Source of the DNA: an uncultured Solirubrobacterales bacterium
GTDB taxonomy: Bacteria > Actinomycetota > Thermoleophilia > Solirubrobacterales > Solirubrobacteraceae
Direction: 5' to 3'
Assembly: GCA_963849295.1 (NCBI GenBank)
Contig: CAWKGU010000009.1
Span: 40,836-104,835 of the forward strand
Length of the DNA stretch: 64,000 nucleotides
Notes under the pieces: model-generated
Told to the model about the DNA's origin: nothing
Seen by the model: the letters and a program-made list of their open reading frames with translations, nothing else
Databases searched by the model: none
Shown: positions 4,082 through 38,367 of the stretch, one piece after another
Position numbering within the stretch: position 1 is the first letter of the stretch
Layout of the letters: each line of letters opens with the position of its first letter
Position numbers and translations under genes: made by a program

Positions 4082-4108
4082 TTGGCACTCTCAGTCTGAG
4101 AGTGCCAA
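4082..4108. promoter_or_regulatory. CIRCE element 2 (HrcA operator)
   Basis: TTGGCACTC-N9-GAGTGCCAA. Confidence 0.95.
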
Positions 4109-4147: not shown

Positions 4148-4438
4148 ATGAAGCTAAAGCCCCTAGGCGATCGATTGATCGTGCGGGCAATCGAGGAGGA
4201 GGAGACCACGGCTAGTGGGATCGTCCTGCCCGATACCGCCAAGGAGAAGCCCCAAAAGGGGAAGGTCCTCGCGGTAGGCGATGGCAAGGTCAACGAGGAC
4301 ACGGGCAAGCGCACGCCGCTTGACGTCGCCGAGGGCGACGAGGTCCTTTACAGCAAGTACGGCGGCACTGAGATCAAGGTGGACGGCGAAGAGCTGCTCG
4401 TCCTCCGCGAGTCAGACGTGCTGGCCAAGGTCCAGTAG
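4148..4438 (+). CDS. groES: Co-chaperonin GroES
   Basis: MKLKPLGDR...[13 protein letters not shown]...SKYGGTEIK. Confidence 0.98.
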
Positions 4439-4456: not shown

Positions 4457-6082
<1,626 letters not shown>

Positions 6083-6098: not shown

Positions 6099-6135
6099 TG
6101 GGAGATTTCTCGGGTATAGGCCGAGAAATCTCCCA
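6099..6135. repeat. REP-like palindrome, copy 1
   Basis: TGGGAGATTTCTCGG-gtatagg-CCGAGAAATCTCCCA (15-bp perfect stem). A near-identical copy lies at 48532-48570. Confidence 0.85.
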
Positions 6136-6181: not shown

Positions 6182-6209
6182 CGAGGGCCCGGCAGATGCC
6201 GGGCCCTCG
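6182..6209. terminator. Hairpin between convergent groEL and GT4 genes
   Basis: CGAGGGCCCGGC-agat-GCCGGGCCCTCG. Confidence 0.65.
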
Positions 6210-33070: not shown

Positions 33071-33334
33071 ATGGCCTACGTCATTGCTGAACCCTGCATC
33101 GGGACCAAGGACAACTCGTGCGTCGAGGTGTGTCCGGTGGATTGCATCCATCCCACCCCCGACGAGCCCGACTACGACAACGTCGAGATGCTCTACATCG
33201 ACCCGGAGGAGTGCATCGACTGCGACGCCTGCGTCGAGGCCTGCCCGGTGGATGCATGCTTCGCCGAGGACCAGCTCCCGGACGAGTGGACGAAGTACAC
33301 CCAGGTCAACGCGGACTACTACGTAAAGAAGTAG
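33071..33334 (+). CDS. Ferredoxin (7Fe/8Fe dicluster type)
   Basis: MAYVIAEPC...CVEVCPVDCIH...CIDCDACVEACPV. Confidence 0.95.
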   Translation: MAYVIAEPCIGTKDNSCVEVCPVDCIHPTPDEPDYDNVEMLYIDPEECIDCDACVEACPVDACFAEDQLPDEWTKYTQVNADYYVKK

Positions 33335-33430
33335 GCCTGGCCGCATGCGGCCAGGCCCCGGCCGGTGCATGCACCGGCCGGTGGGATCGGCGCATGCGCC
33401 GATCCCCGGGGTGGCGCATGCGCCACCCCG
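33334..33430. repeat. Array of four abutting perfect 24-bp palindromes with GCATGC centres
   Basis: GGCCTGGCCGCATGCGGCCAGGCC / CCGGCCGGTGCATGCACCGGCCGG / t / GGGATCGGCGCATGCGCCGATCCC / CGGGGTGGCGCATGCGCCACCCCG. Confidence 0.95.
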
Positions 33431-33450
33431 AACAGCTAGATTAGGGTGCG

Positions 33451-36400
33451 TTGCGGAGGTTGAGGCTTAGACGCGCGCTGGCACTGGCGGCAGGACTGAT
33501 GATCTGCGCGTCCCCGGCGGTCGCGCAGCCGGAGCTGCCCTACCCCGGGGGCGTCAATCAGCCGGCGTCGTCGAGCTACAAGCTCGCGCCCGGCACGACC
33601 CCGTCGAACTTCTCGGACTCGGGCGATTGGGAGCTCACCGGCACTCCTGACACGAGCACGGGCGAGACGCTGAACAACCAGCAGTCCGACCAGCTCTGCG
33701 GGATCCGCGGGATCAGCCTCGTCGACGCGGACGCGACCCAACCGGCTGGCTCGTGCGCCTCGGGCCCGGTACAGACGGCTTTCGAGGTGTCGACCGGCAA
33801 CCCCGACGTTCACATCGCCGTGCTCGACAGCGGCATCAAGTGGAACGACCCCGGTGTCATGGCCAACGAGGCCGACAAGGTCTGGCTGAACACAGGTGAG
33901 CTCCCCGCTCCGCGACACGATCTCTCGACCCCGCTCGCGCCGCTGCCGGGTGGCAAGACCTGCGCGACCTTGGCCAATCCCACCGGAGGGGACTACAACC
34001 GGCTTGGCAACTACTACCCGGACGGCCACGGGAATGAGGTCGGCGGCGACTACGACATCATTGGCGACGGGGTCGTGAACGTGCTCGACTGGGCGTGCGA
34101 CTCGCGCGTCGCGGGCGCGATGTCGAGTCCACGTCGGCACGGGCCTTCCGGTGTGCTCACCCCCGAGGACCTGATCCTCGCGTTCTCCGACGGCGTCGAC
34201 CACGACCACAACGGCTACGTCAACGACATCGCCGGCTGGAACTACGTCGACAACAACAACGATCCCTACGACGACGTCCAGTACGGCCACGGCTCGGGCG
34301 AGGCGCGCGACTCGACCGCGGAGGCCGACACCGGCAGCACCGTCGGCACCTGCCCCAACTGCATGATCATGCCGCTGCGGGTCGGCGAATCGTTCGTCGC
34401 CGACGCCAACCGCTTCGCCCAGGCGGTGCTGTATGCGACCGACCAAAACGCGGACGTGATCCAGGAGGCGCTCGGCACCTACAACGCCCCCTACTTCGCG
34501 CGCCAGGCGATCGAGTACGCCTACCAGCACGGCACCACGGTGATCGCCTCCGCCGCTGACGAGGAGGCCGAGCACCACAACCAGCCAGGCTCATTGCCGG
34601 ACACGATCGTCGTCAACTCGGTCAACTCCCCCGAGGAGAGCATCGGCCCGGTCAACGCGACGGGGTCCTCCTATCTCCAGCTCAATGGCTGTACAAATTT
34701 TGGCTCCCGCATCGATCTCGCGGTCGAGGGGTCGTCGTGCTCTTCGGAATCGACCGGGAAGAGCTCGGGCGTCACCGGGCTTGTCTACAGCGCCGCAGAG
34801 AACGCCCTCCACGACGGGCTGATCACGCCCGCTTCCGGGTGCACGCGGCCTGACGGCACGCCGTGCATCGTCACCCCGAACGAGGTTCGCCAGCTGCTGG
34901 CGTCGGGCAACATCGCCGGCGACACGACCGCAGGCCAGGGCAGTGCCAGCACCGGAACTGCCCCGGGGGATCAGGGCCTCGGGCAGGCCGACGACGTCAA
35001 CTTCGCCTCGCAGCCCGAGACCTCGTGCGCCTCCGCGCCGACGCCGACGTGCACCGACCCGAACTCGAACACGACGTTCAACCCGCTCGACCCCACGCAG
35101 CCGGGCGGACTGATCGGGCCCGACACCTACCAATATCCGGCGCGCAAGGGGTGGGACGAGTTCTACGGCTATGGCCGTCTGAACGCCTACAAGCCGGTCG
35201 CAGCGGCCGCCGCAGGGCACATCCCGCCGCAGGCCGACATCACCTCGCCGGACTGGTTCACCCAGATCGACCCATCGCAGTCGAGCTTCGATCTGAACGG
35301 GGCGGTGTCCTCCCGCGGGTCGTATAAGTGCCAGGTCGATATCGCGCCCGGCGTGCAGCCCAACAACGCCGGCGACTTTCACCAGATCCCGTCGTCTTAC
35401 TGCGACGGCTCGACGGTGCACTCGGCCGCCTACTCGGGGCTGCTGGCGTCGGTCAGCATCTCGAACCTGAAGTCGCTGTTCCCGCCGGGCAACCCCGGGT
35501 CATTTACCGGTAACGAGAACGGTGGGATCCCCCAGGACCAGTTCGGGCGGCCCAACACCAGCCCCTACGGGTTCACGGTGCGGATCGTCGTCTCGACCGC
35601 CTCCGGCGCGCCTGTCGCGATGACGGGCGAGGACCGCCGGCAGCTCTTCCTGCACCGCGACTCGGAGATGCTCGCGGGCTGGCCGAAGCAGCTGTACTCC
35701 GACGGCGACTCGAGCCCGATCCTTGTTGATTTGGAGCACTCCGATCGCAACGACCTGATCGTCGCCAACTCCGACGGCTGGATCCACGCCTACCGCCCCG
35801 ACGGCAGCGAGGCGCCCGGCTGGCCGGTGCACACACTGGCGCTGCCATCGCACGCAGGTGAGCAGGCTTACAACGAGGTTGGCACCGGCCACTACAACGC
35901 GATCCTCGGCGGGCTCGCGGCGGGCGACCTGTTCGGCGATGGTTCGATGGACGTCGTCGCCGACGACATGGGCGGCGACGTATACGCGTGGAACGGACAG
36001 GGCCAGCTCGTCTTCTATGCGCACTCGAACCCGAAGTTCTCAGGCGCGCCGCTCGACTACCCGAGCAATCCAACCGGTGCTCTGGACAACGTCCGTCACG
36101 GTCCCCGCGATCGCGTCGAGGCCGGGTTCGTCACAGGCCCTGTGCTGGCGAGGCTGTCGGGGCCGACGGGTCCGCTCGACATCATCGTCGCCGGCGAGGA
36201 TCGCCACCTCTACGCGTGGGAGCCGAGCGGTCACCCAGTATCGGGCTTCCCGGTGCTGATCGCCGATCCCGACAAGCTGACGGGCATCGATCCGACAACC
36301 GACCATCTGGCGTTCTCGACTTCGAAGGCGATCGCTAACCCGGGCATCTCGGAGGACCAGGGCAAGCTGATCGACACCCCCGCTGTCGCATACACCGATG

Positions 36401-38367
36401 GCCCGAACAAGCCGCCGGTGATCTACGTGGGCTCGAACGAGGAATACACGGTTAATGCCGGCGATGAGGGCGCGATCAATGCCTCGGATACCTCCTTGGG
36501 CGCGATCGGCGCCACCGGGATCCTGTCGTTCGCTAACGGGCGCATGTACGCGATCAAGGCCTCCGGGGGGACCATGACCTGCACCGGCGGTTCGTGTAAA
36601 TCGTCGGCGATCGCGTCGGGCTGGCCGGTCAAGATCGGGATCATCGACGAGGGGCTGCTCCCCGACGTCGGCGAGGGGATCAATGGCTCGCCTGTCGTCG
36701 CGCCGGTGAGCTGCTCGAGTGGTGGCGCTGGGATGAAAGTCGGCGTCTCACCGGACGCCGGCCCCGCATACGTGCTGAACCCCAACGGCAGCTCGTGCTA
36801 CGGCAGCTCGGGCGGCAAATACAACACGCTCGCGATCGACGACGGCAGCGGCGTCGATCATCCCGCGTTCGCGGCGGTTGGCTATCCGGCGTTCGGGACG
36901 CTCGACGGCAGCACGATCTCGCTGTTCGACCAGGGCGCGGGCGCCGTGCGCGCACTCGACGTCGCTGTCAACGGGGAGCAGCGCGGCGGACAGGACTTCA
37001 TCCTCGGCTGGAACCCTGGCTCTGGTCAGTTCGCGACGGGCTACCCGGCCGTCGTCAACGACCTCGGCTTCCTGACGGGCGAGACGGTGGGTGACATCAC
37101 CGGCGGCGCACCGGCGCAGGAGGTGCTCGGCGGGACGGCGTCGCTCGATGTCGAGGCATTCGGATCCTCGGGCCAGCCCGCGAGCTCGGCGTGGCCGAAG
37201 CTCTCCGGCGACTGGCTCGTCGCGACGCCGACGCTCGGCTCGTTCGGGACGCTCGACTACCAGGGGTCGGCCAAGAAGGACGTGGTCACCGTCACTCGCT
37301 CCGGGACCCTGTCGGTGTATTCGACCCCGGCATCGGCATGCTCGCCTTCGTCATGGCCGAACTGGCACCACGACATCGCGAACTCCGGCGACTACACGCG
37401 TGACGCGGTGCCGCCGGGGGCGCCGCTGTCGGTTTCCGTCTCTGGCGGCAAGCTGTCGTTCGTCTCCCCGGGCAACGACCTGATGTGCGGAAAGCCGGTG
37501 CGGTATGAGGTGGTGTCGGCGCCGGGCGCGTTCACCGCCGCTGAGGTTCCTTCGCTGACGCCCCTGAGTGGGGTCCCGGCAGCGGTCGCCGGCGGCAAGA
37601 CCGTGACGATGAAGCTGCCGACGGGAGTGGGTGTGTGCCTTGGGGTCCGAGCGGTTGACGGCGCCGGCAACGTTGGGCCGACGGCGGTGCTCGGAAGAGA
37701 TGGCGCCAAGTGCGGGCCGCCGATCGCGGTGCCCGGCTCGGGGAAGCCGCGCGTGCGGCTGATCATGTACGCGTGGGCCAGCACACAGAGCACGAGCAAG
37801 GTGATTCGCCTCGCGTGGCGGGCGAAGCCCGGCGCGGCGCCGATCTCGCATTACGTCGTGATGTACCGCAAGGCGGGGACGCGGAAGTGGCGGACGCTGC
37901 GCCGGAAGTTCAGGCGGACGGCTACGACTCTTCGAGGGCGGGCTGGGGACACGTACACGGTCAAGGTGACGGTCGTTGACGCGGCCGGCCAGACAAGTGT
38001 TGCCCAGGGCGTCGCGGGAATCCCGGTCGATGACCGCAGCCACGCGGTTCATCGCTCAGGCGGCTGGCACGAGCGTTCCGCGCGCAGTGACTACCTCGGG
38101 AGCCTCGCGCAGGGGTCGGCGGGTGCGACGATGCGGTGGCGGGGCTACGGGATGGTGTTTGCCGTGATCGGGCCGCGGTTGCGCCACGGTGGAGTGCTGC
38201 TCGTGCGGATCGACGGGCACCGCTGGCGGGTCCGGGTCCACGGCCACGGTCAGGCGCGGCAGGTCCTCTTCTCCCACCGCTTCCGGCGGAACGGGCGGCA
38301 CACGATGGTTGTCAGCGTGGCGTCCGGGACCGTCGACGTCGACGCGCTCGGCGCGCGGCGGGCCTAA
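33451..38367 (+). CDS. Large secreted S8 (subtilisin-like) peptidase with FG-GAP-like propeller, Fn3-like and basic C-terminal domains
   Basis: Signal peptide, IAVLDSG (Asp), YGHGS (His), SAADE oxyanion region, SSESTG (Ser region), GWP-containing repeats. Confidence 0.82.
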   Translation: MRRLRLRRALALAAGLMICASPAVAQPELPYPGGVNQPASSSYKLAPGTTPSNFSDSGDWELTGTPDTSTGETLNNQQSDQLCGIRGISLVDADATQPAGSCASGPVQTAFEVSTGNPDVHIAVLDSGIKWNDPGVMANEADKVWLNTGELPAPRHDLSTPLAPLPGGKTCATLANPTGGDYNRLGNYYPDGHGNEVGGDYDIIGDGVVNVLDWACDSRVAGAMSSPRRHGPSGVLTPEDLILAFSDGVDHDHNGYVNDIAGWNYVDNNNDPYDDVQYGHGSGEARDSTAEADTGSTVGTCPNCMIMPLRVGESFVADANRFAQAVLYATDQNADVIQEALGTYNAPYFARQAIEYAYQHGTTVIASAADEEAEHHNQPGSLPDTIVVNSVNSPEESIGPVNATGSSYLQLNGCTNFGSRIDLAVEGSSCSSESTGKSSGVTGLVYSAAENALHDGLITPASGCTRPDGTPCIVTPNEVRQLLASGNIAGDTTAGQGSASTGTAPGDQGLGQADDVNFASQPETSCASAPTPTCTDPNSNTTFNPLDPTQPGGLIGPDTYQYPARKGWDEFYGYGRLNAYKPVAAAAAGHIPPQADITSPDWFTQIDPSQSSFDLNGAVSSRGSYKCQVDIAPGVQPNNAGDFHQIPSSYCDGSTVHSAAYSGLLASVSISNLKSLFPPGNPGSFTGNENGGIPQDQFGRPNTSPYGFTVRIVVSTASGAPVAMTGEDRRQLFLHRDSEMLAGWPKQLYSDGDSSPILVDLEHSDRNDLIVANSDGWIHAYRPDGSEAPGWPVHTLALPSHAGEQAYNEVGTGHYNAILGGLAAGDLFGDGSMDVVADDMGGDVYAWNGQGQLVFYAHSNPKFSGAPLDYPSNPTGALDNVRHGPRDRVEAGFVTGPVLARLSGPTGPLDIIVAGEDRHLYAWEPSGHPVSGFPVLIADPDKLTGIDPTTDHLAFSTSKAIANPGISEDQGKLIDTPAVAYTDGPNKPPVIYVGSNEEYTVNAGDEGAINASDTSLGAIGATGILSFANGRMYAIKASGGTMTCTGGSCKSSAIASGWPVKIGIIDEGLLPDVGEGINGSPVVAPVSCSSGGAGMKVGVSPDAGPAYVLNPNGSSCYGSSGGKYNTLAIDDGSGVDHPAFAAVGYPAFGTLDGSTISLFDQGAGAVRALDVAVNGEQRGGQDFILGWNPGSGQFATGYPAVVNDLGFLTGETVGDITGGAPAQEVLGGTASLDVEAFGSSGQPASSAWPKLSGDWLVATPTLGSFGTLDYQGSAKKDVVTVTRSGTLSVYSTPASACSPSSWPNWHHDIANSGDYTRDAVPPGAPLSVSVSGGKLSFVSPGNDLMCGKPVRYEVVSAPGAFTAAEVPSLTPLSGVPAAVAGGKTVTMKLPTGVGVCLGVRAVDGAGNVGPTAVLGRDGAKCGPPIAVPGSGKPRVRLIMYAWASTQSTSKVIRLAWRAKPGAAPISHYVVMYRKAGTRKWRTLRRKFRRTATTLRGRAGDTYTVKVTVVDAAGQTSVAQGVAGIPVDDRSHAVHRSGGWHERSARSDYLGSLAQGSAGATMRWRGYGMVFAVIGPRLRHGGVLLVRIDGHRWRVRVHGHGQARQVLFSHRFRRNGRHTMVVSVASGTVDVDALGARRA

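Follow-up and report, generated by a model that had tools for sequence, protein, structure and literature searches.

The described systems that most resemble the element considered here are of two kinds. The REP (repetitive extragenic palindrome) elements, bacterial interspersed mosaic elements (BIMEs) and REPINs of Proteobacteria are short, GC-rich palindromes located outside genes that form stem-loops in single strands, lie in regularly spaced clusters, for the most part at the 3′ ends of genes and where two genes converge, and form mosaics of unit types in a defined order. The roles proposed for them are stabilization of mRNA 3′ ends, help in termination, and gyrase binding (PMC2817692, PMC3733652). 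In Streptomyces, GC-rich stem-loops that lack a U tract mark the 3′ ends of transcripts and protect them against 3′→5′ exonucleases (PMC8269248), and such U-less structures are either I-shaped terminators or the exonuclease-resistant ends of Rho-terminated transcripts (PMC8269248, PMC3013805). Here we describe an array of four abutting, exactly palindromic modules that directly follows a ferredoxin gene in a 64-kb stretch of DNA (64,000 nucleotides, herein the window) from an uncultured Solirubrobacterales bacterium. It belongs to a clade-specific family of arrays of extragenic palindromic modules that occurs in uncultured, small-genome Solirubrobacterales, and we report the anatomy, recurrence, placement and evolutionary behavior of the family as observed. 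These arrays share the above structural and positional features of the REP and BIME elements, and we infer that they are of the extragenic-palindrome kind and would work in the manner of REP/BIME elements or of I-shaped hairpins.

The ferredoxin gene (33071–33334, plus strand) ends with a TAG codon at 33332–33334, the G of which is also the first base of the first palindrome. Unit 1 (33334–33357) is GGCCTGGCCGCATGCGGCCAGGCC, or GGCCTGGCC-GCATGC-GGCCAGGCC, and is abutted by unit 2 (33358–33381; CCGGCCGGTGCATGCACCGGCCGG, or CCGGCCGGT-GCATGC-ACCGGCCGG). A single T at 33382 separates the latter from unit 3 (33383–33406; GGGATCGGCGCATGCGCCGATCCC, or GGGATCGGC-GCATGC-GCCGATCCC), which is followed by unit 4 (33407–33430; CGGGGTGGCGCATGCGCCACCCCG, or CGGGGTGGC-GCATGC-GCCACCCCG). 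All four are perfect 24-bp palindromes, each its own reverse complement and hence without strand or orientation, and their GCATGC centers are 24, 25 and 24 nt apart, the 25-nt step being due to the extra T, exactly as the original prediction described them. Next on the plus strand are AACAGC (33431–33436), an end motif of the family, and 14 nt (33437–33450; TAGATTAGGGTGCG) that lead to the next start codon. These are the only perfect palindromes of more than 16 bp in the window (66.9% GC), where the next longest has 16 bp, and at the other CATG sites of the window at most 7 of 10 flanking pairs are complementary. Given the base composition, a window of this size should contain 0.014 perfect 24-bp palindromes, and in 60 first-order Markov simulations one run contained one single example. 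Four abutting palindromes with a common core therefore far exceed chance expectation. As a single strand the array folds into four 10-bp stems with CAUG (in DNA, CATG) loops, with energies of −90.7 kcal/mol for RNA (z = −7.1) and −55.1 kcal/mol for DNA (z = −7.5).

The original prediction further held that the array is not a simple tandem duplication, a clustered regularly interspaced short palindromic repeat (CRISPR) array or a U-tailed terminator, and on all three counts it was correct. Tandem Repeats Finder reported no repeat here, nor was one apparent in a direct-repeat view, which argues against simple duplication; the units abut and differ from one another; and the tail 3′ of unit 4 (AACAGCTAGATT) contains no T run, so the array is not a U-tailed terminator. 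A terminator scan flagged unit 1 alone, read on the minus strand, and the T-rich tail that follows it there belongs to the ferredoxin coding sequence. The best Rfam matches at the array, RsmW (37.5 bits, threshold 52) and HgcF (24.2 bits, threshold 70), are both below threshold, on the minus strand, and multi-hairpin look-alikes. No Rfam family reached its gathering score at the arrays of 18 further loci, and no tRNA or Rfam family was seen adjoining arrays in the loci scanned.

The family was recovered by a scan in which each GTDB species was represented by one genome and the pattern was three GCATGC cores spaced 18–19 nt apart, with the arms unconstrained. The matches listed comprise at least 118 loci and include about 80 arrays of 2–8 abutting perfect palindromes, all of them in uncultured Solirubrobacterales metagenome-assembled genomes (MAGs). 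At least 67 assemblies are represented among the loci with arrays. Their records name five projects (Microflora Danica, SMAG, SPRUCE peat, a Stordalen fen MAG and binchicken), and a few additional MAGs are labeled otherwise. At loci titled Solirubrobacterales, Solirubrobacteraceae or ‘Actinomycetota’, all nine arm pairs are complementary in 216 of 264 matched cores and eight of nine in 37 more, and 257 of the 264 have at least seven. For all other phyla, none of the 149 matched cores reaches seven, and the mode of two to three pairs is the chance level. Matches outside the clade, the arms of which are not palindromic, were thus rejected as family members and are ordinary direct repeats or coincidences. 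The recurrent arrays with covarying arms for which the original prediction proposed to search are therefore present, and its assignment of the DNA to the Thermoleophilia is borne out by the closest relatives of the window, which are Solirubrobacteraceae MAGs. A full-text literature search returned nothing on such arrays.

The same three-core pattern also matched 55 loci in IMG/VR, none with palindromic arrays, and a phage origin was rejected since these are direct repeats or chance matches. Three of the viral loci (L121, L123 and L125, ~40% GC) contain two repeated palindromes, GAGACAACGCATGCGTTGTCTC and AGACAAGGCATGCCTTGTCT, along with a direct repeat of 24 nt that has GCATGC as its core, and represent an unrelated family of viral repeats. 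Ordinary 24–25-nt direct tandem repeats that contain GCATGC occur at L056 (3185–3400), L164 (10136–10424) and L157 (4150–4330). These loci belong to a MAG of the Thermoguttaceae, a contig of viral origin and a MAG of a giant virus, the last of which gave many separate pattern matches.

Within the family set examined (82 arrays, 309 units), arrays most commonly have three units, and isolated units are nearly absent. Unit length is 24 bp in 237 of the 309 (77%) and 22 bp in 43, and the 22-bp units are padded by 1–2 nt such that the phase is kept at 23–25 nt. Spacers of 1–2 nt are common, and the centers are 24 nt apart in 173 steps, 23 nt in 24 and 25 nt in 30. GCATGC forms the core of 285 units and ACATGT that of 24 (RCATGY), with a GTATAC core in two array-adjacent units, and since position −4 is a pyrimidine and −3 a purine, the center reads YRYATRYR. 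The arms are rich in G on the 5′ side and in C on the 3′ side, and the stem of ~10 bp folds on either strand. The YRCATGYR core alone is shared, as there are 240 distinct half-units among the 309 units, with certain arm types recurring at unrelated loci (GGCAGGGCC, seven times, CCGGACGGY, CCAGNCGGC and CGGGGNCGC) and the ACATGT core associated with xCGC arms (odds ratio 5.6, P = 1.6e-4). Single-linkage clustering of the arms was set aside, as it yielded one large cloud that is uninformative without a control.

The length of the unit is actively bounded and extension past 24 bp is avoided. Complementarity of the next pair outward, with which a unit would reach 26 bp, was seen for 22 of 259 units versus 74.7 ± 6.5 expected, and for internal abutting units the value is 6 of 64 versus 20 ± 3. 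The center is similarly restricted: in 614 kb of array loci, 320 of the perfect palindromes of at least 18 bp are CATG-centered versus 35 others, and the loop is CATG in 313 of ~358 hairpins with a 4-nt loop whose stem is perfect over at least 9 bp. Among ~3000 stem pairs there are no G:T pairs, and wobble is not enriched at stem ends (10/50). The arrays are also polar, as AAC(A)GC is found at one end only in about half of them. AAC begins 36 of 154 array ends (~1.4 expected), with AACNGC at 23 and AACAGC at 14; the opposite end is often preceded by GGAA, tails across the family read AAC… or TTCC…, and, judged by their first letters, units are most commonly arranged as G-unit, C-unit, C-unit, AAC.

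Variant or decayed units adjoin arrays at L003 (131–154), L089 (~5124), L010 (~6702), L040 (~5825), L054 (~1269), L118 (~5402), L065 (~5051) and L055 (~3054). They include palindromic GTATAC cores, asymmetric loops (CGTG, CACG, CAAG/CAAA) and a 2-nt core deletion, and their stems are all perfect. A different tandem hairpin array is present at L043 (7455–7540), where the stems GACGCCGG, GTCGCCGG and GACGCCGG are spaced by 30 nt and the loop is a non-palindromic CGAG, and a similar CGAG-looped hairpin is found at L093 (~7040).

These properties set the arrays apart from the systems that they most resemble. The palindromes of REPs are imperfect, their sequence is conserved and they bear a GT(A/G)G or CGTC head, whereas the array units are exact palindromes with diverse arms, none of the 309 carries GTAG and CGTC precedes only 4; hence they are extragenic, GC-rich, clustered stem-loops like REPs but lack the conserved imperfect sequence and the head. 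REPs alternate in orientation within BIMEs, while the polarity of the arrays comes from unit order and the end motif alone. REPs are tied to RAYT transposases of the IS200/IS605 type, and no transposase was seen near the arrays among the 25 most frequent flanking families. One survey lists GTAG repeats in Proteobacteria, Cyanobacteria, Chloroflexi and the PVC phyla, with Actinobacteria unmentioned. CRISPR repeats are likewise short, palindromic, regularly spaced and non-coding, but they are identical and separated by spacers, whereas the array units differ, abut (0–2 nt), have a 24-nt period, and form groups of 2–8 after housekeeping genes. The non-canonical GC-hairpin terminators of high-GC bacteria and the HS-U-lack 3′ ends of Streptomyces resemble the arrays in form, with a 7–14-bp stem, a 4-nt loop and no U tract, at most ~50 nt from the stop codon, in tandem or shared by convergent genes, and they may mark exonuclease-trimmed ends (PMC3013805, PMC8269248). 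Unlike the arrays, they have arbitrary loops and imperfect stems, with no fixed length, shared core or end motif. The arrays fit the descriptive WebGeSTer I/V/U/X definition (a trail with at most three U, and a stop codon no more than ~50 nt away), which is a computational class and not proof of termination and which leaves out their constant core, length and symmetry, while they lack the U tract of the canonical L-shaped intrinsic terminator. We could not find a description of units that are exactly palindromic, of arms that vary while the self-complementary core is fixed, of a bounded 24-nt module, or of abutting arrays with one polar end.

In terms of placement, a stop codon is located within 70 nt of at least 58 of the 82 arrays, mostly at −1 to 20 nt. 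Stop codons abut either end of the arrays, which led us to reject a fixed polarity relative to transcription. The 33 arrays with confidently called genes on both sides lie at 16 convergent, 16 tandem and 1 divergent junctions, compared with 47, 145 and 51, respectively, for the background of junctions in the same loci (P = 2.7e-4). In tandem settings the array may fill the entire gap from the stop codon to the next ribosome-binding site, as it does in the window and at L026 and L109. The flanking genes are ordinary housekeeping genes, 61 proteins matching 85 Pfam families that include topoisomerase I, aminoacyl-tRNA synthetases and acyl-CoA dehydrogenases, and a link to a particular gene class was rejected because these 85 families are unrelated. 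There is no transposase family among the 25 most frequent of them, and the nuclease, transposase or reverse transcriptase gene that the original prediction suggested might accompany such arrays was not seen next to them among the most frequent flanking families.

How the arrays evolve is best seen at the ferredoxin gene, for which orthologous loci were fetched via homologues of the divergently transcribed NmrA/SDR gene. In L196 the ferredoxin stop codon is followed by three units, GATCGGGCC, CCCGGCGC (22 bp) and CGGGGTCGC, the last of which is homologous to unit 4 of the window and shows a compensated transversion. L197 and L198 share another set of three, GGCCGCGGC (with an ACATGT core), CCGGCGGC (22 bp) and CGGCGGGCC. 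The comparison of orthologous ferredoxin loci that had been proposed thus reveals arrays with different but fully compensated arms in these lineages, and no array in L084, L199, L200/L201 and L202. The contig of the closest relative (L195, from a short-read metagenome) terminates within the first unit after the ferredoxin stop codon (GGCCGGCGCACATG; 1–24), which suggests that arrays may break short-read assemblies and may be under-counted in MAGs. The downstream neighbor in L196–L198 is a convergent Mrp/ParA-type gene rather than the 1638-residue gene found in the window, and hence the array travels with the 3′ end of the ferredoxin gene, while in L200 the same ferredoxin/Mrp junction has a 41-nt spacer and no array. 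Four-fold sites are 44–54% diverged between the window and L196 or L197, and yet all units in each lineage are perfect, which is incompatible with neutrality. Taken with the recurrent covarying arrays and the sharp 24-bp bound, the compensated arms at these loci bear out the view that length, symmetry and the central hexamer are constrained. In L084 (871–942, 4717–4974), the ferredoxin is 94% identical and an unrelated gene of 1244 amino acids stands in place of the array; that gene is itself followed by a three-unit array common to a convergent gene.

At other orthologous pairs the number of units differs (3 vs 5, 5 vs 3, 3 vs 6, and 4 vs 3), and one indel is of a single whole unit (L091). 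A half-unit remnant at L091 was considered as a case of de novo unit creation, but the alignment is ambiguous and it is counted as a one-unit indel alone. Between L047 (6417–6539) and L080 (4217–4313) the array is inverted relative to flanks that are ~82% identical, and the AACAGC motif moves along with it; a AACAGCACACA flank accompanies this inverted array, as would result from in-place inversion or from independent insertion. Arm differences between orthologues are all compensated, for example GACATAGCC, GACATCGCC and GACATTGCC in L024, L039 and L086, and likewise between L054 and L118. The same is true of near-identical strains in public sequencing runs, where stem differences occur solely as pairs (in L097, 2274 T>G with 2289 A>C; in L055, 3102 G>A with 3121 C>T and 3131 C>G with 3140 G>C), together with one loop change and one extra unit in some strains. 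Transversions are about as frequent as transitions among the compensated changes.

We propose that the arrays are REP/BIME-like stacks of hairpins in 3′ untranslated regions or between cistrons, which would act as barriers to exonucleases and to read-through on either strand, and we put the probability of this reading at about one half. Arrays that lie 3′ of stop codons, are shared by convergent genes, are not at promoters and are inherited with the upstream gene are what is expected of a transcribed 3′-end element. Each array would be transcribed together with the gene that ends directly upstream, as its 3′ untranslated region or as an intercistronic spacer, and the stack of very stable hairpins would block 3′→5′ exonucleases and impede read-through, such that the 3′ end of the upstream mRNA would be fixed and stabilized. 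Since an exact palindrome with a self-complementary loop gives the same RNA from either strand, one array could serve both of two convergent genes. The array in the window would protect the short ferredoxin message and would attenuate, rather than abolish, transcription into the 1638-residue gene. Hence, of the four roles that the original prediction offered without ranking, RNA hairpins that protect the ferredoxin 3′ end or gate read-through appear to be the best fit to the placement, whereas pairing between transcripts found no support; the other two, a cruciform or unit-addition array and a phased protein site, are less likely. Whole units are gained and lost, and one array is inverted.

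The exactness of the palindromes could be maintained by strong selection with rapid compensation in very large populations, or by hairpin-templated template switching, a known mechanism of replication in which one arm of a hairpin is copied onto the other and several bases are compensated in a single event, so that perfect stems are both created and repaired (PMC8794818). Such copying would explain the paired double substitutions, including transversions, between near-identical strains, and these together with the lack of wobble intermediates make us lean towards it. It is, however, a mutational process that leaves the fixed 24-nt length, the CATG center and the avoidance of extension unexplained.

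Several observations weigh against a role of the arrays as RNA hairpins. RNA stems normally tolerate G:U pairs, and the G:T enrichment that would be the signature of RNA wobble was looked for and rejected; with zero G:T pairs and about half of the changes being transversions, a rule or mechanism at the DNA level fits at least as well. The rare changes in the outer loop are sometimes compensated too (CATG to TATA, twice), which an RNA tetraloop does not require. Canonical intrinsic termination is unlikely in the absence of a U tract. Three further features, the polar end motif, the whole-unit indels and the in-place inversion, resemble those of mobile or recombining DNA. Genes in this genome are also followed by ordinary single hairpins whose loops are arbitrary, and the proposal does not account for a special form at ~1 in 60 genes. 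Lastly, in six shallow metatranscriptomes no RNA contig spans the L097 array while DNA-type contigs do, although at such low depth this carries no weight, and cDNA synthesis is itself hindered by hairpins.

A further possibility, less likely than not in our view, is that these self-symmetrizing 24-nt modules constitute a new kind of bacterial repeat that stands apart from REPs, CRISPR and miniature inverted-repeat transposable elements (MITEs), one that combines hairpin-templated copying with a dedicated reader of YRYATRYR on RNA or single-stranded DNA of either strand and is confined to one lineage of soil Actinomycetota. Modules would then be added, lost and inverted as whole units, and candidate readers would include an RNA- or single-stranded-DNA-binding protein, a nuclease, a CATG-specific methyltransferase or an HUH-type enzyme.

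Rather doubtful, in our view, is that the arrays are structural elements at the DNA level, forming cruciforms or hairpins or serving as phased sites for topoisomerase, gyrase or a nucleoid protein at the ends of genes, with extrusion nucleated at the sole A/T step of each unit in an alternating, Z-prone YRYATRYR core. The strict Watson-Crick symmetry that excludes G:T pairs and sometimes reaches into the ‘loop’, where the GCATGC, ACATGT and GTATAC cores are all palindromic, fits such a role, as do the sharply bounded length and the regular 24-nt phase. Positive supercoils accumulate between convergent genes, where the arrays are enriched, and the BIME-2 elements of Escherichia coli bind gyrase (PMC2817692). 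A protein that reads duplex DNA, however, has no need of complementarity at arm positions that it does not contact, and cruciform extrusion requires negative supercoiling, which is expected upstream rather than downstream of genes. The asymmetry of G-rich 5′ and C-rich 3′ arms, which is typical of transcribed hairpins, is likewise not explained by such a role, and the stems stay perfect in units with asymmetric mutated loops (CAAG, CGTG and CACG). No candidate binding protein was identified.

That the arrays are selfish, non-autonomous DNA of the REPIN or MITE type, spread by an enzyme, tolerated solely in 3′ intergenic DNA and without function for the host, is unlikely. In this case the perfection of the units would be held by template switching during replication. 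Much of their behavior is what such DNA would show, including the polar terminal motif on about half of the arrays, the unit types that recur at unrelated loci and the linkage of ACATGT to xCGC arms, and the depletion from promoter regions that is usual for MITEs and REPs. The varying unit number at orthologous sites, the clean one-unit indel, the inversion that carries its flank motif, and the presence or absence of an array at the same ferredoxin/Mrp junction point in the same direction. On the other hand, no transposase or HUH gene was found among the 61 flanking genes (25 most frequent Pfam families), the REP heads are lacking as described above, and the pattern scan of IMG/VR gave no arrays in viral contigs. 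Moreover, arrays within a genome are as diverged as those between genomes, with no sign of a recent burst; perfection through ~50% synonymous divergence needs selection or very efficient correction; and a copying mechanism alone would not yield the avoidance of palindrome extension.

It is very unlikely that the arrays are ordinary non-canonical terminators, that is, tandem ‘I-shaped’ GC hairpins (WebGeSTer V, U and X) that arose independently after genes in a high-GC genome and have the core incidentally, even though stems of 10 bp, loops of 4 nt, ~−22 kcal/mol for each unit and a distance of at most 50 nt from the stop codon are in the typical range of predicted terminators, and abutting and convergent hairpins are recognized classes (PMC3013805). 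Independent origin fails to explain the near-invariant CATG loop (the 313 of ~358 hairpins given above) or why module and phase are exactly 24 nt, why the arrays have an end motif in common and are confined to one order, and why single units are nearly absent, and the ordinary hairpins of the window have arbitrary loops and lengths. As a complete explanation, this one is already contradicted by the counts of arms, CATG centers and loops.

An assembly or fold-back artefact of the contig can be dismissed: palindromes can break short-read assemblies, as in L195, and the public runs that match the window locus do so only within the conserved ferredoxin coding sequence, but the same architecture in at least 67 independent assemblies from long- and short-read projects, its occurrence with strain-level variants in independent Logan contigs from unrelated soil runs, and the homologous arrays at orthologous ferredoxin loci exclude it indirectly.

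The Solirubrobacterales are among the most abundant uncultured Actinomycetota of soil, and to our knowledge almost nothing has been established about how their transcripts are ended or stabilized. The hundreds of exact palindromes described here may constitute a natural experiment in which base pairing is kept either by selection or by template switching, as the arms drift and yet the units examined show no mismatch, not even G:T. If the stacks do act on either strand, they would be compact bidirectional 3′-end modules of potential use in high-GC synthetic biology, and if the CATG core has a dedicated reader, be it an enzyme or a binding protein, this would represent a new nucleic-acid recognition system.

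The ferredoxin encoded next to the array in the window (87 amino acids) is of the FdxA type (7Fe-like) with Pfam Fer4/Fer4_7 matches, its best NCBIfam match is FdxA_Actino at 89 bits, which is under the equivalog cut-off of that model, and its orthologues in relatives are 88–95% identical. The downstream open reading frame (33451–38367, plus strand; 1638 amino acids) is adjacent to the element rather than a part of it, and begins with TTG 20 nt from the end of the array. No sigma-70-like promoter was detected between the two, and the gene is therefore probably transcribed through the array. The N terminus of the encoded protein (LRRLRLRRALALAAGLMICASPAVAQ) resembles a signal peptide, the only matches are a weak one to fn3 and a subtilisin-like one below threshold, and the motifs D-S-G and HDHNGY are present. 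The product is probably S8-like, large and secreted; the original prediction called it a protease, for which the evidence is the subtilisin-like match at 28 bits versus a cut-off of 165. A tie between the array and this gene was rejected, as relatives of the protein (at most 74% identity) at 21 metagenome loci have varied gene neighborhoods with neither the ferredoxin nor an array upstream.

Elsewhere in the window, the groES (Cpn10; 4148–4438) and groEL (Cpn60; 4457–6082) genes are preceded by an inverted repeat, TTGGCACTC-N9-GAGTGCCAA (4082–4108), ~40 nt upstream of groES, which is of the CIRCE type (the operator of HrcA). Between groEL and a convergent glycosyltransferase gene are two single hairpins (6100–6134 and 6182–6209) with 12–14-bp stems and non-palindromic loops, which are the ‘normal’ 3′ hairpins of this genome. 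The ordinary 3′ hairpins of the window are single and have arbitrary loops and lengths, and by comparison with them the arrays are a special class, at ~1 per 60 genes.

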